DNA from: an uncultured bacterium
GTDB lineage: Bacteria; Abyssobacteria; SURF-5
DNA length: 48,039 nucleotides
Direction of reading: 5' to 3'
NCBI GenBank assembly: GCA_964607485.1
Contig: CAZSKP010000027.1
Coordinates: 1 to 48,039, forward strand
The position numbers are program-made. Positions 15,001 through 33,000 of the stretch are shown here, one piece after another; within the stretch, counting starts at the first letter, position 1, and each line of letters opens with the position of its first letter.

Positions 15001-18000
15001 TGGCCAACGGTTCCAGGCCCGCCAGGATGGCGGCCATGGAAAAGGGACCTCCGCCGAGAAACAGCCTGAACAGAGTGAAGCGCTCCGCCATTAAACTGAA
15101 GACGTTGAAATTGTTCAGGAGGCGGTCATGCATCTGGAGGCCGGAATCTTCAAGCCGGGCAATATCATCGAGGTCCTTGACGGAATGCTCCGTCACCGTG
15201 GCGACGGAGTCCTCGTGAATCTTCACCTTGCAGCCATAGCTCTGGGCGAACGCGGAAATGTCGGGAACGCAGGAGAACGCAAACTCGGTCCGGAGCGTAT
15301 CGGCGGTGTAACTGAGCGAATCGAAGGCGATCTCCGGATCCAATATGTTCTCTTTGAGCTTCGTATTGTTCAGCCTCGCCATGACGATGCCGACAAGCAG
15401 AAATATCATCCGGCGCTCGGCCATATTCATGATATCGACCAGCCTCATCCCGCGAAATGTTTCCAGAATGGAGAGCCCCAGAGGGCGAAGACTCTTCTGG
15501 CATCCGATCCAGATGAACATGTCAATCAGCGGCTCGGCGTTTTCGCCTGCTTCCTTTTTTCTCACCCATTCCTGAAGTCTGGCCGCTTCCGGTCTGGACG
15601 CATTCTCATTTGCCCAATCCCTGACCTTACGGATAATCTCCTTCGACTTCTCCTCACAAATACCGGCGCCTTCTGTATCCATGCTCCGCCTCCAGCCACT
15701 ATTGATGTGTTGCAAGAAGGACACCCGAACGACGGATGGACGGTCTTTCCTTTTGCCGCTCTCCTGACGCGTCGGCCGGCGTGTGCCATGAGTGAAACGA
15801 CGCTCAGACGAGCAGCACGGCGATGATGCTGGAGAAGAATATCCCGTCGAATGTGCCTGCGCCTCCGATGGAGACGAAGGGAGACCCAAGCGAGCTGATT
15901 TTCCCCAGGTTGAGAATATCCGCGCCGAGCAGTGTCCCGACACTCCCGGCTATGTATGCTATCCGGGGAGCCTCTTTGCGCATCAAGATAAGGGCGGACA
16001 TGGCTGCCGCTATGGGCGGAATGAAGGTCGGAATCGCGATTCCAACCCCTCGTATGGGTGTGGCGAAATGGTAGGACACCGCGGTCACGATGGCTACTGC
16101 TGTGAGCGCCCTCAAGGGACGCGAAATCTTGAGCAGGAGGTACAGCGAGACGACCACTGGTATGATTGCGCCGCCAAGATTCACCGCGACAATTGTTTCC
16201 TTCGTCGTCGCCCATGCGGGGACGACGATTTGCATCCCGAAGTAATGAACCGGTTCTTCGAGGGTTATCGTTTCGCCTGGAATCCTTGCGACCGGGATGT
16301 TTATCGCGCTTCCAAAGAATGACAGGAAGAGTATGATGAACACGTAACGATGGTCTATCCCCACTTTCTCGAGCGCATAGCCGATGACCTTGATTTCGAT
16401 CATCACGAAAAGGAATACCAATAGCAGGAAGAAGAATACGCCGTATTTCGCCAGAAAGGGAAAAAAGTGATACATGCCGGTGTTCCTCCCTGCACAAAGG
16501 CCGTTTCGTTCCCGGATAGCAGCTCAGGGGAATGTGGCGCTCTCCATGAGTTTCTGTTTCAGCAGAGGCTGGACAGTCGCCAGCACCACAAATATCCAGA
16601 ACAAATCCAGGATGGAAGGGGCGGCCATGTGAGTTCTCCTCATGTAGTGAGCGTATCTTGACTCACTTGAGCGAGGTCAGAGCAAGATGGGCGGTTGCTG
16701 CGCGCTCGTTCTCATGCTAAACCGTTCAGATTCCTTATTTTCCGATAGTTTTCACGCACATCTTCTGCACGCGTTATATGTCCGAAGTCCCTTTCAATAT
16801 AATAGGTCGCAAGGCTGCAGTCAAGCACATATGGCACGTGCTTCTCCGTGTATCGCAAGATCAGTTCCCAGTCCACCAACGCCGTCAGCTCTTCATTGAA
16901 TCCCCCGAACTCCTCAAACAGGAGGCTTCGATGCATGAACACATTCATGTCGATATAGTTTTTCATTAAGAGGCGTTTTCTGTCATATTCCTTCAATCTT
17001 ATGTAATCTCTTTTTCCGACGTTGTCTATCACCCTCACTCCGCAATACATGGTGTTCACGTTCGGGTTATCAACGAACGTATTCACCATGAGGAGAAGAT
17101 AATTATCGGCCCATACATTGTCGGAGTCGAGATAGGCTATGAGTGAGCCGGTCGAGTGTTCGAGCCCGACATTCCTCGCGTGGCTCACGCCCGTGTGTCT
17201 GCTTTTTATGTACCGGACTCTTCCATCTTGTTCATAGTTTGACTTCACTAGATCTTCTGTGCTATCAGTGCTTCCGTCGTCGGACACGATAAGCTCAAGA
17301 TTTCCGTAAAGCTGTCCCAGGGCCGAATCGATCGCTCTCCCGATAACGAAAGCCCTGTTCCAGGTCGGCATTATCACCGAGACTTTCGTGTCCTGCGGCC
17401 TTTTTTCATACCTCTGGGTGAGTCTCAGCTCGTTTATCTTGAGCCTGAAGGCGTCGCCGGCGATGAGAGATTCAAGCTCATCGGCCCGCCCAGGCGCTTT
17501 GGCTTGGGCGGATTCAGCTGTCCGTTGAGGCGCAGTGTGGTCGTGCATGATTCTCATTTTCTCCCCACGACGAGTTGGGAGCCGTCGATGGGGATTCGGT
17601 GAACATCTCTGAAGCCCGACTGTTCCAGCAGGCTTTTCACTTCCGCATATGAATAGGAACGGCCGCTCGGAGTCCCCACGAGCATGTTCACTCCAAAGAT
17701 GGCCGCAGAAGCGGGCTTCGTCCTCGATTCATCGAGTATCGAATCCCGGATGACCACCCGGCCGCCATCCGTGAGAGACTTGTGCACTTTCCGGAGCAAA
17801 AGAGAATTCTGCTCTTCTCCACAGATGCAGATGATAGAAGAAAGGAACACCAAGTCGTACTCGCCGCCCAGTTCGTCCGCGAGAAAGTCTCCCTTCCTCA
17901 GGGTGACGCGGCCATCCAGGTTCTCTTTCTCGATTTCTTCTCCCGCTATCTTCAGGGCGCGGTCGTCCTTGTCGAATATGACCGCCTCCATGCCGGGATA

Positions 18001-30000: not shown

Positions 30001-33000
30001 ACAAGAATTAGGTATCGGAAGGTTGAGTATCTGTATCAGCAAATGCTTGCCTCTAACAACAGCGCTCCACATATGTCCTGAGTTTGCATCAATGCCGAGC
30101 CTCTATCGATGTCCTACGGCCTCCTCTCAAAAAGGGGAGTTGCCCTTGTTCTCGGTTCGTTCCTCTTCGTCACCTTTCGCATAGCATCTCAATGAATTTC
30201 GAAATACGTTGTCAAGGCACTGATTGCACGATATGCACTGCGCCTTCGCCAAGTCACCCGACGCCCACCTCTTGACCAGAGCAGGCTCCCGGATAAAGGG
30301 TCTCGACAGCGAGACAAAATCGGCTGCCCCCTCTTCAAGGATTTCCTCCATAACGCTAAGCGTCCTCATGCCGCCTACAAGGATGACCGGCACATTGACA
30401 GCTTCCTTTATGGCAAAGCCTGAGGTTCGAAAATATGCTTCTCCGCCATATTTGCCCGAGGGCTTGAGCAGCTGGCTTTCCAAACTCCCCAGGAAATACC
30501 GGCTCTCGGGCAATCCTCCTGTCACCTCAATGCAACTAATTCCTGACCCAACGATGATCTCTGCAATCCGAACTGCCTCATCTGTGTCCAGACCGCCAGG
30601 GATGAAATCATCACAGTTCATCTTGATCATGACGGGATAATTCTCATCGAGGAGTTCCCTCACTCGCTCAACGATTTCCGTGATAAATCTTGCCCGGTTT
30701 TCAGTGCTGCCCCCGTACTGGTCCGTTCGATTGTTAAGATAGGGCGAAATAAAGCTGCTGATCAAAAATCCATGGCCCCCGTGCAGTTGAACGGCGTCAA
30801 AACCCGATTCCATCACTCGACGGCAGGCCTGTGCAAAATCCTCAACAACGTGTCCTATTTCCTCAACCGACATTGTGCGAGCAACGACATCTCCGCGCTT
30901 ATCCTTAATATCAGATGAAGAGATGGGCGTGTCACCTCTCAGAACTGGATTGTCCCGACCGCCCGGATGAGTGATCTGCATAGCGATCTTTGCGCCGCAC
31001 TCATGCACTCTCTTGGTCACGCTCTTCCACGCACCGATCTCGTTGTCATCATCCATCGCGAAGGGAGTGGGCGCTCTTCCGGCCAAGCGGAAATTCTTAT
31101 GCCTTTTGACAAAAGCTCCGCCGGTAATGACGAGCCCCACACCTCCATTCGAGAGGTCTTCGTACAGTCTGCGAAGTTCGTCGCTCGGTCCCCAGTTCGA
31201 TGTCCCCATCCCTTCGTACGTGGCCGAACGCACAAACCTATTCTTGATTTCAAGCTTGTCGATCCACGCCGGCGTGAATAATATAGACACTGAAATCTCC
31301 TTGTATATAATCAACTTCCATTTGAACCTTCTGAACCCACTAATTATAGAGTATTAACGACAGAAAGTTAATCCTCCGGTGGAAATTCTGTCCCTATTCT
31401 GATATGCTCCTGCCCGTCATGCTTCTTCAGGCAGTTCTGTCTGGAACCACAAGAGACGGGCATAAGGAGAAAGAGCCATGGGAGTCTTCACGGGCAAAGT
31501 CGCCATCGTAACGGGCGGAGCTTCCGGCATCGGCCGGGCCGTGGGAGAAGAGCTGGCGCGCCGCGGAGCCAAGGTGGTTCTCGCAGATGTGAACGCCGGA
31601 TTGCTCGACGAAACCGCTGCGTCGATGGCGGATGCCGGTTACCGGGCGAAGACCGTATCCCTCGACGTCACCGATTTCGAAGCGGTCAAGATGATGGTGG
31701 ACGACACGGTCGCAGAATACGGGAGGCTGGACTATATCTTCAACAACGCGGGCGTCGTCACGTTCGGCGAGGCCCGGGACCTTTCGTACGACGATTGGCG
31801 CAGGGTCATCGACACGGATTTGTATGGGGTGGTCAATGGCGTGATGGCGGCCTACCCCGTCATGGTGAAGCAGGGGTTCGGGCACATCGTAAACACCGCA
31901 TCTCTTGCGGGACTGGTCCCCGCAACGGGGATAGTGCCGTATGTTACGGGCAAGTACGGCGTGGTCGGTCTCTCAAACGCGCTCCGCTCGGAGGGCGCCG
32001 ACCTCGGCGTCAAGGTCAGTGTGGTGTGTCCCGGCCTGATAGATACACCGATGAAGAACAGCAAAGTAATCAAGGTGGACCGCGAAAAGCTGCTTGCGGC
32101 GGTGCCCAAACTGCTGCCCGTCGAGAAATGCGCCGAGGTAATACTCCGGGGAGTCGAGCGCAATAAGGCGATTATCGTGGTGACGGGCGAGGCAAAACTC
32201 TACTGGGTGTTACACCGTCTCAGCCCCACACTCGTGATGTGGTTCATCAGGACGGTCCACACGAAGAAGCTTCGGAAAATTCGCGTCGAGGACTAGCATG
32301 GCCTGATGCGTGGCGGCCAAGTTTCAATTGACGACACTCGCATTTACCTGAACGTTTACCGCGAGTACCCGCTGCCGAGCGCCCGCAACCTCGTCGTTCC
32401 GGTCAAACTGTGGGTGTGGTAATCAACGGCAGGCAGGGCCCGCATCCTCATGCCCTGGTAGCGGTGGAGGGATTCGAACCCCCGACCCAAGGATTATGAT
32501 TCCTCTGCTCTACCAGCTGAGCTACACCGCCATTTTCGGAAAAATTATAGCAGTCTATGACGCGCCTTGTCAATACAACTGCGGGCGCTTCAGTCCTGCC
32601 GGCATCTCCGCGAAAATGTCCTCCAATGCTCGGGAAACTCTCAGGCGTGCGGAGGATTAGAATGGGCTGAATGGCGACCGCCGCGTCACTGTTTGCTGAA
32701 TGAAACGGTGTCGGAACTGATTACCGCCCCGCCGGCGTCCAGCGCCTCCACCGTCACGTCGTAATTGCCCGATGCCAGAGGCCGCAAAGGGTGCCTCGTA
32801 TAGTAGGTGTCGGTGGTGACGAGGGTCATCGTTCCTCCGCCGGGAGGCGTGGCCCTGATTCGATAGCTGGAAGCGCCTTCGACCGGATTCCAAAGGAGTG
32901 CGATGAGGGCATCGAAGGTAAACTGAATTCCTTCGGGCGGCGAGATTATTTTCAGAACATCAGTCGGGGGCGGCGGCACGGCCAGCAGCTGCTCGCAATC

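Follow-up and report, generated by a model that had tools for sequence, protein, structure and literature searches.

A gene cluster on the minus strand at 16712 to ~29889 of the window (the whole 48,039-nucleotide stretch of DNA analysed here) combines precursor genes with an LPP-type core and accessory genes, and probably encodes a RiPP pathway with the steps, accessory modules and product proposed below. Judged from sequence, its core is that of a family described in May 2026, the linear polyphosphorylated peptides or LPP (PMC13381572). The LPP set comprises an SpI-like peptidase, a discrete RRE, a kinase of HprK-like type, an NTP transferase and an exporter (PMC13381572), and Pfam and NCBIfam matches place all five functions (peptidase, RRE, kinase, nucleotidyltransferase and exporter) in the present cluster. 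At the equivalog level of NCBIfam no match reaches its cut-off (kinase 59.8 against 200, PqqD1 29.2 against 35, rSAM1 at most 156.7 against 265).

The survey's finding of a conserved RiPP-type cassette is supported: the enzyme assignments are reproduced with Pfam and NCBIfam, and the precursors stand ahead of the listed enzymes. Its statement that no paper combines these parts does not hold, the core having been published as the LPP family, and its definition of the cassette by radical SAM enzymes gives way to the distribution of genes described below.

Related loci

A metagenome scan returned 16 contigs, which collapse to about 11 distinct sequences. The same gene order with at least one cassette gene was seen in 10 of the 16, and the remaining 6 carry precursor genes only; the survey had ascribed the same precursors and order to 12 of 13 metagenome contigs. 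Genome G003 and two named MAG records had been taken as separate loci; however, the MAG locus L010 and G003:C238 are one and the same contig, and were therefore counted once. Enzyme identities across related loci are 33–76% rather than 37–77%. The presence of the cassette in one of nine family relatives was confirmed.

Precursor peptides

The five tandem precursor genes reported earlier are all borne out, with a common leader and Gly/Cys-rich tails, each by open reading frame, alignment, Shine-Dalgarno site and profile:

26166..26309, minus strand, precursor 1, 47 aa, tail ending GGCGCGA
26422..26592, minus strand, precursor 2, 56 aa, tail GGCGPGCGIPPPVA
26719..26868, minus strand, precursor 3, 49 aa, tail GGCGCGSIL
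26995..27177, minus strand, precursor 4, 60 aa, tail CTGGLCGTPDGNDGGCGPIL
28746..28913, minus strand, precursor 5, 55 aa (58 aa from start 28922), tail GCEEGCGCGCGCACPPG
28516..28728, minus strand, degenerate precursor copy (profile E 2.6e-18, alignment), tail running into a 135-nt repeat
28473..28607, no strand assigned, copy 1 of the 135-nt direct repeat

Besides its start at 28913, precursor 5 has a further in-frame ATG at 28922. The Shine-Dalgarno sites claimed for the genes are present as purine-rich stretches ahead of all five starts (GGAGG in four, AAGGGGGG ahead of 26592). The degenerate copy, also noted earlier, is real, its tail being replaced by the repeat; copy 2 of the latter (31374-31508, 90% identical) overlaps the 5' end of an SDR gene at 31478, and the repeat looks like a rearrangement junction.

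Alignment of the six copies gives 13 invariant columns, including P16, V18, A20, T21, S23 and P33-H34-G35, and when the 4.70-Mb genome is searched with a profile built from them, just these six sites are found; the next candidate has E = 0.62. Each of the five precursors runs from an N-terminal YxxPx[VI][LI] through a block A-[T/S]-Y-x-K-E-E-L-x-x-x-I-x-P-H-G to a variable Gly/Cys-rich tail. A search of 5.8 billion clusters extends the family to 98 members at E <= 0.01. The docking motif YxxPx[VIL][VIL] is present in all 98, as are Tyr at Y+9 and Leu at Y+14; position Y+8 holds Thr (74 members) or Ser (24), hence a hydroxyl residue throughout. At least two Cys occur in 82 of 94 parsed tails. 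None of the six copies, degenerate one included, matched Pfam at E <= 0.01. A single NCBIfam match to one precursor (E 0.0086, 15 bits against a cut-off of 350) was read as noise. The description of a new leader family is apt only in part: no Pfam or NCBIfam model covers it, but every member carries the docking motif of lasso and LPP precursors.

The conserved core

Downstream of the precursors lie the core enzymes:

24009..24959, minus strand, HprK-like kinase (TIGR04352 E 2.2e-16, 59.8 bits, cut-off 200; PF07475 E 0.0025)
23395..23979, minus strand, Sec11/SipW-type (S24/S26) peptidase, presumed leader peptidase (PF00717 36.5 bits, cut-off 23.3; TIGR02228 38.9 bits, cut-off 51.85)
23113..23391, minus strand, core PqqD-type RRE, PqqD1 (PF05402 38.2 bits; TIGR04353 29.2 bits, cut-off 35)
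20431..21690, minus strand, PF14907 nucleotidyltransferase of PsmN/LppN type (PF14907 196.7 bits, cut-off 31.2)
19402..20406, minus strand, DrrA-like ABC exporter ATPase (PF00005 106 bits; TIGR01188 249 bits, cut-off 312)
18582..19433, minus strand, ABC-2 type exporter permease (PF01061 66.1 bits)

In each of the 10 distinct loci of sufficient length the precursors are followed by the kinase, whose residues G157-K158-T159-T160 and D175-E176 are invariant (9 of 9). Peptidase and PqqD1 were each found in 7/7 distinct loci of sufficient reach, and the nucleotidyltransferase in 5/5 (the present stretch, L010, L011, L012 and L018). Its D133 and D135 do not vary among the five; PsmN, which is inactive as D134A/D136A, is reported to be required for a +162 Da addition on phosphate (PMC6993621). 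The exporter ATPase (54–61% identical) and permease (59–76%) recur in L010, L011 and L012.

The peptidase profile matches SEC11C and SEC11A with E about 1e-8, and C29, H66 and D85 align to the SGSMEP, VHRV and KGDN stretches. Since Cys occupies the Sec11 nucleophile position in six of seven homologs and His66 is replaced in three of the seven, the peptidase may work differently, or may be inactive in some loci. Complex prediction for PqqD1 with a precursor gave a score of 0.60, against 0.08 for the best of three controls, with at least 94% of contacts agreeing between runs and partner pLDDT of at least 59. Among solved complexes 116 of 157 reach the mark, as do 2 of 215 mismatched pairs; scores passing it at or below 0.60 belong to only 18 of the 157 complexes but to both mismatches, and the support is weak rather than strong. 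The pass may also reflect memory, because similar RRE-leader complexes have already been solved.

By these distributions, what stays constant in the cassette is the precursor together with HprK-like kinase, Sec11/SipW-type peptidase, PqqD and PF14907 nucleotidyltransferase. Both radical SAM enzymes are accessory by the same measure, because each is missing from some loci while the kinase follows the precursors in all 10: the first (rSAM1) is lacking in L022, L023 and L024 and has decayed in L018/19, and the second (rSAM2), with its partner PqqD2, is absent from L012 and L018/19. This pattern bears on a different reading, in which the cluster represents a new RiPP class whose defining modification is made by two radical SAM/SPASM enzymes, with kinase, peptidase and nucleotidyltransferase as tailoring functions. 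Precursors lacking a Pfam or NCBIfam family, the prevalence of Cys-rich tails, and the position of rSAM1 directly after the precursor genes as the best conserved enzyme (61–76% identity) would all suit such a class. Given the absences just listed, the match of core genes and YxxPxVL to the LPP family as published (PMC13381572), and a missing SPASM match in rSAM2, we regard it as quite unlikely and retain the LPP-type core as the basis of the pathway.

Accessory genes

22047..23087, minus strand, second radical SAM enzyme, rSAM2 (PF04055 78.7 bits)
21741..22019, minus strand, second PqqD-type RRE, PqqD2, paired with rSAM2 (PF05402 51.4 bits)
17554..18792, minus strand, SAM-dependent O-methyltransferase, Methyltransf_2 plus dimerisation domain (PF00891 88.9 bits; PF08100 41.6 bits)
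16712..17557, minus strand, family-2 glycosyltransferase (GT2), distal end of the operon (PF00535 107.9 bits)
30127..31314, minus strand, Old-yellow-enzyme flavin oxidoreductase (PF00724 184.8 bits)

Two radical SAM/SPASM enzymes had been described. Both are radical SAM proteins, but SPASM was matched in rSAM1 only; for rSAM2 the Pfam scan gave no SPASM match at E <= 0.01. Homologs long enough to cover them conserve the CX3CX2C motif of rSAM2 and six more Cys. The enzyme occurs in the present stretch, L010, L011 and the Cys-free L022, and PqqD2, which matches the lasso RRE TbiB1 (5v1u) with E 3.1e-8, in the present stretch, L010 and L011. The O-methyltransferase is conserved in L010, L011 and L012 (47–50% identical) and truncated to 174 aa in L018. 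A GT2 homolog occupies the equivalent position in L010, L012 and L018 (52–62% identical) and was not found in L011. The Old-yellow-enzyme gene appears only weakly linked to the cassette: it adjoins it in just one of 19 related loci searched (L010, 57% identical).

A radical SAM enzyme associated with Gly-Cys tails

25035..26147, minus strand, radical SAM/SPASM enzyme rSAM1, start ATG 26147 or GTG 26090 (PF04055 79.6 bits; PF13186 38.0 bits, cut-off 21.5)

The CX3CX2C motif and eight further Cys of rSAM1 are invariant (7 of 7). That rSAM1 tracks Cys-rich tails, as the survey had proposed, is upheld among contigs covering the relevant stretch: it is present in 7/7 loci with at least two tail Cys and absent from all three Cys-free ones, while L018/L019, with one Cys, retains a remnant of 71 aa. 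On the kinase tree, this co-occurrence amounts to just one or two independent changes, and 138 of 500 label shuffles gave a number as low; it is no better than shuffled labels.

New support for an action on Gly-Cys tails comes from outside the cassette. In a sample of 401 genomes from another phylum, four rSAM1 homologs (47–55% identical, the nearest relatives outside the cassette) all have a TIGR04222 membrane protein (87–119 bits, cut-off 43) as neighbour or at a distance of one gene, and the C-terminal tail of every such protein is rich in Gly and Cys and ends GCGGCGG(G)D. Cys-rich tails of TIGR04222 proteins are among the proposed substrates of MNIO enzymes, and bufferin thiooxazoles chelate copper (PMC12452194). 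The earlier assignment of rSAM1 as Cys-modifying maturase gains from these neighbours, but is weakened by the few changes on the tree and by a GT-A-like protein of the same distribution.

As to the chemistry, SbtM converts Gly-Cys/Sec to thio(seleno)oxazole (PMC9204691). The best NCBIfam scores of rSAM1 are nearly equal for MftC (156.7 bits), ACGX (153.4) and SbtM (147.5), all under their cut-offs, so thiooxazole formation is not singled out by sequence. The same pathway could conceivably employ rSAM1 for thioether cross-links of the sactipeptide or ranthipeptide type, or for conversion of Cys to formylglycine or thioaldehyde. The full SPASM domain with eight invariant auxiliary Cys would be compatible with this, as would PDB matches to SkfB (7.4e-11), CteB (5wgg, 1.3e-9) and anSME (5.6e-9), and the matches, PapB at 86.3 bits among them, include both thioether-forming and Cys-oxidising SPASM enzymes. 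However, a (Gly-Cys)n tail offers just Gly and Cys as acceptors, SbtM is reported to target exactly this dipeptide (PMC9204691), and its score exceeds those of PapB and AlbA (56.2), none being at the family cut-off. Such chemistry is somewhat doubtful, and thiooxazoles are the preferred product.

GT-A-like proteins of the cluster

The listed enzymes of the cassette are all present, but the earlier gene list omitted a conserved gene and its broken paralog:

27155..28111, minus strand, UnkL, family-less GT-A-fold glycosyltransferase-like protein directly upstream of precursors (AF2 model, structure matches)
28906..29889, minus strand, UnkM, second GT-A-like copy, broken by one in-frame TAA at 29746-29748

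UnkL has no match in Pfam or NCBIfam. In comparisons with its AF2 model (pLDDT 89.6), GT-A glycosyltransferases rank first (Z 11.3 by VIA-align, with 212 aligned at rmsd 4.6 Å; E 1.4e-7 by Foldseek), and the predicted fold resembles the protein-modifying enzymes GlyE, glycogenin, ColGalT1 and Skp1 galactosyltransferase (Z 10–11.3). Across 117 sequences D138 does not vary, and conservation of D136 is at least 90%. The domain part of UnkM matches with E 1.8e-141. UnkM shares 71% identity with the L013 copy and 60% with UnkL; no ATG, GTG or TTG lies between its stop and 29616.

UnkL tracks Cys tails in the same way as rSAM1. A homolog stands ahead of the precursors in 9/9 distinct Cys-type loci with upstream DNA, whereas the upstream DNA of two Cys-free loci, L022 (1.5 kb, where an SDR gene lies) and L024 (2.6 kb, with mfd on the opposite strand), has none. 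This shared distribution confounds the association of rSAM1 with Cys tails.

Cys-specific modification might instead fall to the GT-A-like protein, which could, for instance, be an S-glycosyltransferase for tail cysteines, with rSAM1 acting elsewhere or assisting. Its place beside the precursors, its modelled likeness to protein-modifying enzymes and its intact state in L018, where rSAM1 has decayed, are in keeping with such a role. A common fold, however, does not show the acceptor, and the gene could sit further off in the Cys-free loci because those contigs are short. No homolog was found near the four TIGR04222-linked rSAM1 relatives, so the link of rSAM1 to Gly-Cys tails stands without it. 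We therefore consider this assignment unlikely and keep rSAM1 as the candidate tail modifier.

The broken UnkM, the degenerate precursor, the rearrangement marked by the 135-nt junction repeat and the decay of such cassettes in L018/19 might suggest a decaying or silent remnant without present product. Against this, none of the 12 genes for enzymes and transporters between GT2 and UnkL, both included, is interrupted or shortened relative to homologs (coverage 0.76–1.00), catalytic motifs are intact, and starts and Shine-Dalgarno sites are retained in five precursors, which makes a remnant very improbable and favours a working pathway.

Proposed pathway and product

The core steps are modelled by analogy on LppB/K/S/N and PsmK/N. 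PqqD1 would hold the YxxP strand and present the peptide, and the kinase would phosphorylate a hydroxyl residue, possibly several times; Thr/Ser at Y+8 is the best candidate because a hydroxyl residue is found there in every family member. The nucleotidyltransferase may add a sugar or nucleotide onto the phosphate, and the GT-A-like protein and GT2 might make further additions. Leader removal by the peptidase would be RRE-dependent, and the product would leave through the ABC-2 pump.

Co-occurrence suggests the accessory steps. rSAM1, which has SPASM and no RRE of its own, may directly recognise the Gly-Cys tail and oxidise its cysteines, most likely to a thiooxazole at each Gly-Cys as with SbtM. 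rSAM2, with its own RRE (PqqD2), would make a second modification on a part common to Cys-rich and Cys-free precursors, and the O-methyltransferase may cap a thiol, hydroxyl or carboxyl. Because the core matches a phosphorylating pathway to which a radical SAM enzyme associated with Gly-Cys tails is added, the likely product is a modified peptide that may bind metal. If this reading is true, the predicted peptide would be exported, phosphorylated and glycosylated, with a metal-binding thiol- or thiooxazole-rich tail.

Comparison with linear polyphosphorylated peptides

LPP clusters are described as having 1–3 precursors each, with the motif YxxPxVLxHQxIxFETxxS; LppK polyphosphorylates core Ser3 and reportedly tolerates neither Thr nor Tyr at its site, and cleavage by LppS needs LppB (PMC13381572). 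Relative to the family as given there, the present cluster shares the kinase, discrete RRE, signal-peptidase-like protease, NTP transferase, exporter and YxxPxVL precursors. In contrast, its precursor motif diverges after YxxPxVL, its sole universal hydroxyl residue is mostly Thr, whereas LppK accepts neither Thr nor Tyr, and its exporter is of ABC-2 type where that of the LPP family is MsbA-like.

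Organization of the cassette

In a genome of 4.70 Mb (93 contigs, 97.5% complete), the cassette forms a co-directional gene row on the minus strand that runs from 31314 down to 16712. Families were assigned to the cluster genes by Pfam and NCBIfam searches.

Genes of the cassette in the direction of transcription
30127-31314, minus: OYE flavin oxidoreductase (Pfam/NCBIfam), first in the row
28906-29889, minus: GT-A-like copy broken by a TAA
28746-28913, minus: precursor 5
28516-28728, minus: degenerate precursor
27155-28111, minus: intact GT-A-like gene
26995-27177, minus: precursor 4
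26719-26868, minus: precursor 3
26422-26592, minus: precursor 2
26166-26309, minus: precursor 1
25035-26147, minus: rSAM1, radical SAM enzyme with SPASM domain (PF13186)
24009-24959, minus: HprK-like kinase (TIGR04352, below cut-off)
23395-23979, minus: S24/S26 peptidase (PF00717)
23113-23391, minus: PqqD1 (TIGR04353, below cut-off)
22047-23087, minus: rSAM2, second radical SAM enzyme (Pfam/NCBIfam)
21741-22019, minus: PqqD2 (Pfam/NCBIfam)
20431-21690, minus: PF14907 nucleotidyltransferase (PF14907)
18582-20406, minus: ABC ATPase (DrrA-like) and ABC-2 permease (PF01061) (Pfam)
17554-18792, minus: O-methyltransferase (Pfam/NCBIfam)
16712-17557, minus: GT2 glycosyltransferase (Pfam/NCBIfam), last in the row

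The survey's finding of tandem precursor genes with a processing cassette is confirmed, since a Shine-Dalgarno site precedes each start, the profile of the six copies is specific to them and the gene row is as described. The purine-rich stretch 5' of the precursor starts reads GGAGG in four cases and AAGGGGGG ahead of 26592, and the six-copy profile finds nothing in the genome beyond these copies (next match E = 0.62). All the listed genes were found, but neither the GT-A-like gene (27155-28111) nor its broken paralog had been listed. Both enzymes announced as radical SAM/SPASM proteins are indeed encoded as radical SAM genes, although a SPASM match is seen only in rSAM1. For the latter, the interval 25035-26090 follows a stored gene call with a start at 26090 (351 aa) and may be too short: the longest open frame reaches an ATG at 26147, and the homologs from two related loci, L013 and L028, align from residue 1.

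A 135-nt direct repeat (28473-28607 and 31374-31508, 90% identical) encloses the 3' end of the degenerate precursor, precursor 5, the broken GT-A-like copy and the OYE gene. Its first copy stands in place of the tail of the degenerate precursor and its second overlaps the start of an SDR gene at 31478; the repeat resembles a junction left by a rearrangement or an insertion. Rfam searching of the window returned tRNA only and no riboswitch, and a scan for terminator-like sites (17, versus 15.2 +/- 3.9 in shuffles) and promoter-like sites (16, versus 8.5 +/- 3.3) was uninformative. The tRNA gene (32459-32531, minus strand) lies about 1 kb past the upstream end of the cassette, where no further conserved neighbours were found. 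Other genes of the window include an S8 subtilase with a fervidolysin-like prodomain (32686-34257, minus strand), a 541-aa protein in which N6/N4 DNA methylase and Mrr-like restriction endonuclease domains are fused (11805-13430) and, just outside the cassette on the plus strand, two MsbA-like ABC half-transporters (34435-36210 and 36279-38090), MsbA-like being the pump type described for the linear polyphosphorylated peptide (LPP) clusters discussed below.

The precursor family

RiPP precursors usually combine a conserved N-terminus with a hypervariable C-terminus and occur in tandem copies. A search of 5.8 billion protein clusters yielded 178 candidate relatives of the precursors, 98 of them at E <= 0.01. 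Nearly all are nameless, and those with a name are hypothetical proteins from MAGs that carry the labels Poribacteria, Deltaproteobacteria and Nitrospirota. YxxPx[VIL][VIL] is present in all 98; the positions after it read A-[T/S]-Y-S-K-E-E-L. Counted from the tyrosine of the motif, position +8 is Thr in 74 and Ser in 24, +9 is Tyr and +14 is Leu in all 98, and P-H-G occupies +20 to +22 in 79-87. Among 94 parsed tails, 82 have at least two cysteines, three have one and nine have none, and 80 have at least two Gly-Cys dipeptides; the four tails outside the parsing pattern are visibly (Gly-Cys)n. Near the C-terminus, 22 precursors carry Ser-[Ile/Val/Leu]-[Ile/Leu/Phe].

In two metagenome loci (L028, 4768-4956, and L027, 2546-2726) the precursor reaches a TGA after KPHGDLG, and the frame goes on as GCGSIGGGSW to a second stop. 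As the frame resumes with GCGS, the TGA stands at a site where the Gly-Cys repeat would have a cysteine. The codon is a nonsense mutation or else specifies selenocysteine. Neither a SECIS-like signal (fold z = -1.06; 25 of 200 shuffles fold as well) nor an Rfam match at E <= 1 was detected near it, and these results speak neither for nor against selenocysteine. In the rather unlikely full scenario described below, some members of the family, namely those of L027 and L028, may have selenocysteine within the Gly-Cys repeat.

Related loci and an invariant core

Related loci were collected with two peptide patterns taken from a narrower precursor alignment, so that divergent members are missed; a wider alignment provided no conserved stretch for such a scan. 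Three loci (L010, L011 and L012) came from the genome collection and 16 from the metagenome collection. Several of these are duplicates (L015/L016, L018/L019 and L027/L028 are 96-99.95% identical, and L016/L021 and L021/L023 overlap at 94-99%), and about 11 distinct sequences are left once the metagenome duplicates are removed. The genome G003 and the named MAG of L010, which the survey's finding treated as separate records, are the same contig (G003:C238) and therefore count once. The survey's count of one cassette holder among nine genomes of the same family holds: among 40 other genomes sampled around that of the window, only G003 has the precursors.

Distribution of the cassette genes over the loci that reach them
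Kinase: present in 10/10 distinct loci (window, L010, L011, L012, L013, L018/19, L022, L023, L024, L028); absent from none
Peptidase and PqqD1: present in 7/7; absent from none
PF14907 nucleotidyltransferase: present in 5/5; absent from none
rSAM2 and PqqD2: window, L010, L011, with rSAM2 also in L022 (contig end); absent from L012 and L018/19
rSAM1: window, L010, L011, L012, L013, L025, L028; absent from L022, L023 and L024; 71-aa remnant in L018/19
ABC genes: window, L010, L011, L012; absent from L018/19

From this pattern of presence and absence it follows that the precursor, kinase, peptidase, PqqD1 and nucleotidyltransferase are the invariant core, and that the radical SAM enzymes are modules. 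In L012 and L018/19 the PF14907 gene directly follows PqqD1. Identity to the enzymes of the window ranges from 33% (peptidase, L012) to 76% (rSAM1, L013), which corrects an earlier range of 37-77%. The cassette of L018 (5643-5858, the same in L019) is decayed, with a 71-aa rSAM1 remnant, no ABC genes, a methyltransferase truncated to 174 aa and a one-Cys tail; elsewhere on this contig, 11045-11821 encodes a protein with a REP_ORF2-G2P replication-protein domain.

Enzymes of the core

No paper was thought to combine these parts, but the core set has been published for the LPPs, which were described by Popov et al. (Nat Commun 2026, PMC13381572). According to that paper, the precursors of an LPP cluster number one to three and share the motif YxxPxVLxHQxIxFETxxS. 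On heterologous expression the kinase LppK adds up to four phosphates to Ser3 of the core and rejects Thr at its site, the NTP transferase LppN has no detectable effect, and the peptidase LppS (catalytic S29, H68, D93) cuts after Thr-1 only with the RRE LppB; the family is described there only in Bacillota (PMC13381572). The main text does not mention radical SAM. 'Radical_SAM' stands once as a label in a supplementary co-occurrence table, and the supplement could include rare cases in which an LPP cluster carries a radical SAM gene. A literature search combining HprK, radical SAM, PqqD and RiPP gave no paper among the matches listed.

The kinase of the cassette matches TIGR04352 with E 2.2e-16 and 59.8 bits against a cut-off of 200, and its P-loop GKTT is invariant in 9/9 sequences. 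At this score it is an HprK-like homolog by sequence and not a demonstrated member of the TIGR04352 equivalog. The peptidase, encoded next to a PqqD gene, scores 36.5 bits for PF00717 (cut-off 23.3), and its profile matches SEC11C and SEC11A with E ~1e-8, residues 29, 66 and 85 falling on the stretches SGSMEP, VHRV and KGDN. At residue 29, the position of the nucleophilic serine of Sec11 within SGSMEP, six of the seven homologs (window, L010, L011, L018, L022 and L028) have Cys and only L012 has Ser. Three of the seven have Cys, Lys or Asn in place of His66, and K83 and D85 are invariant.

The nucleotidyltransferase scores 196.7 bits for PF14907 (cut-off 31.2) and keeps D133 and D135. In the lasso peptide pseudomycoidin, according to PMC6993621, the kinase PsmK phosphorylates the C-terminal Ser and the PF14907-like PsmN is needed for additions of +162 Da on the phosphate, the D134A/D136A variant being inactive. 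As for the small recognition proteins, PqqD2 matches the lasso RRE TbiB1 with E 3.1e-8, and a predicted complex of PqqD1 with the precursor lends weak support to their pairing (score 0.60, versus 0.08 for the best of three controls; contact agreement between runs at least 94%, partner pLDDT at least 59). Of 157 solved complexes, 116 pass the mark used for such predictions, as do 2 of 215 mismatches; at scores <= 0.60, only 18 of the 157 passed, together with both of those mismatches. Since RRE-leader complexes have already been solved, the prediction may reflect likeness only.

A GT-A-like protein of the Cys-type branch

The protein encoded at 27155-28111 matches no Pfam or NCBIfam model. Its profile retrieves 516 representative clusters at E <= 0.001 (184 at E <= 1e-30), a family for which Pfam has no model, and finds 0 matches among PDB sequences at E <= 10. 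An AlphaFold2 model from 117 sequences (pLDDT 89.6) replaced an earlier one from nine sequences (pLDDT 60.8, weak Foldseek matches). With VIA-align the top 20 rows are all glycosyltransferases at Z 10.0-11.3; the best match has an rmsd of 4.6 A over 212 aligned residues at Z 11.3, and WbbM, ColGalT1, the Skp1 galactosyltransferase, UGGT, GlyE, LgtC and glycogenin lie at Z 10-11. Foldseek ranks 3tzt_A first (E 1.4e-7, TM 0.35/0.45). The DxD motif, D136-P-D138, is conserved. In the ESM Atlas 29 of 30 matches are unnamed clusters, and in the one at rank 10 Glycos_transf_2 is annotated for 76% of the members; a lead there places some look-alike clusters in phages. Seventeen relatives were annotated with Pfam, of which 14 are longer (395-681 aa); only Lipocalin_9/CrtC-like or Cupin extras were seen, the former in five of the 14, and they offer no hint of function.

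A homolog is found directly upstream of the first precursor in 9/9 distinct Cys-type loci with upstream DNA; none was found upstream in the Cys-free loci L022 or L024. We take the protein to be a predicted glycosyltransferase of the Cys-type branch. The second copy (28906-29889) is interrupted by an in-frame TAA at 29746-29748 and has no ATG, GTG or TTG before 29616, so its conserved domain is left without a canonical start. It is 71% identical to the copy in L013 and 60% to the intact copy of the window, and thus the two modules are not a recent tandem duplication.

Radical SAM enzymes and the Gly-Cys tails

rSAM1 has a SPASM domain (PF13186, 38.0 bits, cut-off 21.5) and lacks an N-terminal RRE; its CX3CX2C motif and eight further cysteines are invariant in 7/7 homologs. 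rSAM2 gives no match to PF13186 at E <= 0.01, and its homologs, where they extend far enough, share six extra conserved cysteines with it; its auxiliary domain, on this sequence evidence, could be twitch-like or divergent. Among NCBIfam models rSAM1 scores nearly the same for MftC (156.7), ACGX (153.4) and SbtM (147.5), all below cut-off, and therefore sequence alone does not fix its chemistry.

The association of rSAM1 with Cys-rich tails, proposed in the survey's finding, now extends to 7/7 Cys-tail loci versus 0/3 Cys-free loci, and L018/19 combines a decayed rSAM1 with a tail reduced to one Cys. On the kinase tree the Cys-free loci amount to only one or two changes, L022 and L023 being near-identical, and 138 of 500 label shuffles do as well; across loci the co-occurrence is statistically weak. 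Furthermore, the GT-A-like gene is distributed like rSAM1 and therefore confounds the assignment of rSAM1, from co-occurrence, as the enzyme that modifies the cysteines.

Further evidence comes from the wider relatives of rSAM1. Scoring of 8000 candidates gave at least 1804 of them at E <= 1e-20; identity is 59% or more in each of the best 120, several of which come from contigs equal in length to those of listed precursors. A sample of 401 genomes from G042's phylum contains six with a homolog at E <= 1e-90, and two of these are cassette holders; in the class of G041 one of nine genomes has an rSAM1 homolog. The four non-cassette homologs of the 401-genome sample are 47-55% identical, and no cassette genes, precursors or GT-A-like homologs were found around them. 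In 4/4 the enzyme comes directly after, or one gene after, a membrane protein with a TIGR04222 domain (105.9, 119.2, 87.3 and 116.2 bits; cut-off 43), whose Gly/Cys-rich tail ends in GCGGCGG(G)D at all four loci.

TIGR04222 membrane proteins with Gly/Cys-rich tails beside rSAM1 relatives
L046: 9581-10477
L047: 7706-9370
L048: 10400-11335
L049: 8083-9051

In the rSAM1 tree a single branch (support 74/75; 78% of bootstrap trees) separates the seven cassette enzymes from the others, with the TIGR04222-linked enzymes as their nearest relatives. The adjacency to TIGR04222 proteins together with the cassette tails thus associates the rSAM1-type SPASM clade with Gly/Cys-rich C-termini on two substrate scaffolds that are unrelated to each other. 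Of the evidence available for action of rSAM1 on the tail, this pattern is the best, and it suggests that the enzyme recognises the tail directly.

According to PMC12452194, TIGR04222 tails (Cys-rich, Gly/Ser-rich) are proposed substrates of MNIO enzymes, one third of the TIGR04222-bearing genomes have no MNIO genes, and the MNIO-made thiooxazoles of bufferin chelate copper. Radical SAM is mentioned there twice, in the reference list only, and the TIGR04222 literature searched, as far as its text was available, includes no paper that links the pairing of TIGR04222 with the SPASM clade to radical SAM. SbtM, itself a SPASM enzyme, is described as converting Gly-Cys/Sec to thio(seleno)oxazole within the Gly-rich motif GGUG (PMC9204691). 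It is this literature on MNIO/TIGR04222 and SbtM that leads us to rank thiooxazole formation first for rSAM1, speculatively. Thioether formation instead is a serious rival.

A possible pathway

The gene set, the conservation of its motifs and the distribution of its modules are read from sequence, and homology to the LPP enzymes and to PsmK and PsmN suggests an order of events. A PqqD-type RRE would dock the YxxP of the leader and the kinase would phosphorylate the precursor; a candidate acceptor is the Thr/Ser at Y+8, the only universal hydroxyl residue, with the reservation that LppK, as described, rejected Thr at its own site. The PF14907 protein would then extend the phosphate, the leader would be cut with the help of the RRE, possibly at L-A-T|Y, mimicking F-E-T| of LppA, or alternatively at P-H-G|, and the product would be exported. 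Judged from co-occurrence, the Gly-Cys tail would be the target of rSAM1, and rSAM2 with PqqD2 may act on a portion that both tail types share, since in L022 rSAM2 occurs together with Cys-free tails. Thiooxazole formation and the binding of metal would be speculative additions.

Rather unlikely, in our estimate, is the full scenario in which the rSAM1 clade is an O2-independent counterpart of MNIO enzymes that recognises Gly/Cys tails without a leader and turns each Gly-Cys into a 5-thiooxazole. The clade would have had an older role on periplasmic TIGR04222 tails and been recruited to an LPP-type kinase pathway through the (Gly-Cys)n tail, and anaerobes would thereby make and export a poly-thiooxazole metallophore that is phosphorylated and glycosylated.

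The pairing of the SPASM clade with Cys-rich TIGR04222 tails is the most valuable new lead. Together with the (Gly-Cys)n tails it gives a concrete hypothesis with a short, synthesisable substrate. If true, cysteines would be turned into metal-binding heterocycles by a radical SAM clade without oxygen, as is proposed for MNIO enzymes under aerobic conditions, which would bear on the third of TIGR04222 genomes reported to have no MNIO gene (PMC12452194). Two further enzyme oddities are the Sec11-type peptidase with Cys at its nucleophile position and the Pfam-less GT-A family of 516 representative clusters.

Comparison with known systems

Like the cassette, the SbtM system (TIGR04082) joins a SPASM enzyme to Gly-Cys in a Gly-rich substrate (motif described in PMC9204691). 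The systems differ in that rSAM1 reaches 147.5 bits versus a cut-off of 350, over model positions 188-515 with no counterpart to the first ~187, and in that a single site is described for SbtM versus the repeat of the cassette. For the ACGX system (TIGR04340), in which the enzyme is paired with Ala-Cys-Gly-Xaa repeat peptides, rSAM1 scores 153.4 bits with a cut-off of 400; no paper in the literature collection searched has ACGX together with radical SAM. The best single NCBIfam match of rSAM1 is MftC (TIGR03962), at 156.7 bits over the full length with a cut-off of 265, and MftC also works with a PqqD-type partner. A mycofactocin reading was rejected on scores under the cut-offs, the OYE and GT2 proteins matching the models of that system only generically (195.9 of 793 and 61.3 of 280), and the SynChlorMet and GeoRSP cassettes were set aside with matches far under theirs; no paper on SynChlorMet was found in the literature collection searched.

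The GCGGCGGGD endings of the TIGR04222 proteins resemble the tails of the cassette precursors. These are, however, membrane proteins of ~300-550 aa without a YxxP leader, no TIGR04222 gene belongs to the cassette, and in PMC12452194 such proteins are paired with MNIO enzymes, versus radical SAM enzymes here. For the HPr-rel-A system (TIGR04352, TIGR04353) both matches fall short, the kinase with 59.8 versus 200 and PqqD1 with 29.2 versus 35 bits. Paeninodin and pseudomycoidin (PMC6993621) share with the cassette an HprK-like kinase and a PF14907-type NTP transferase that act on a peptide recruited by means of its YxxP leader and a PqqD-type RRE. Neither a macrolactam synthetase (C) nor a B2 cysteine peptidase was found among the 14 cluster proteins scanned, and therefore the product is not a lasso peptide, a reading that is ruled out.

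The closest counterpart is the LPP family (PMC13381572). All five LPP functions (SpI-like peptidase, discrete RRE, HprK-like kinase, NTP transferase and exporter) are also present in the cassette of the window; both systems have several precursor genes with a conserved N-terminus opening YxxPxVL and variable C-termini, and both have glycosyltransferase genes nearby. The full LPP motif is absent, YxxPxVL being followed by ATYSKEELEExIRPHG in the cassette versus xHQxIxFETxxS in LPPs, and the tails of the cassette are (Gly-Cys)n. The pump differs as well (ABC-2 permease and DrrA-like ATPase in the operon versus MsbA-like), as does the peptidase, with its Cys at the nucleophile position in 6/7 homologs and His66 replaced in 3/7. 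The cassette additionally has a radical SAM/SPASM enzyme, a second radical SAM enzyme with a second RRE, an O-methyltransferase and the GT-A-like protein, and its hosts belong to uncultured sediment and groundwater lineages rather than to Bacillota. It thereby carries the LPP core beyond Bacillota, the only hosts for which this family was described, into lineages including, by the labels of their records, Poribacteria, Thermodesulfobacteriota/Deltaproteobacteria and Nitrospirota, and it shows that an LPP-type core takes plug-in modules. The cassette is real and conserved and not a categorically new class: it is an LPP-type system plus radical SAM, GT-A-like and methyltransferase modules, with (Gly-Cys)n cores.
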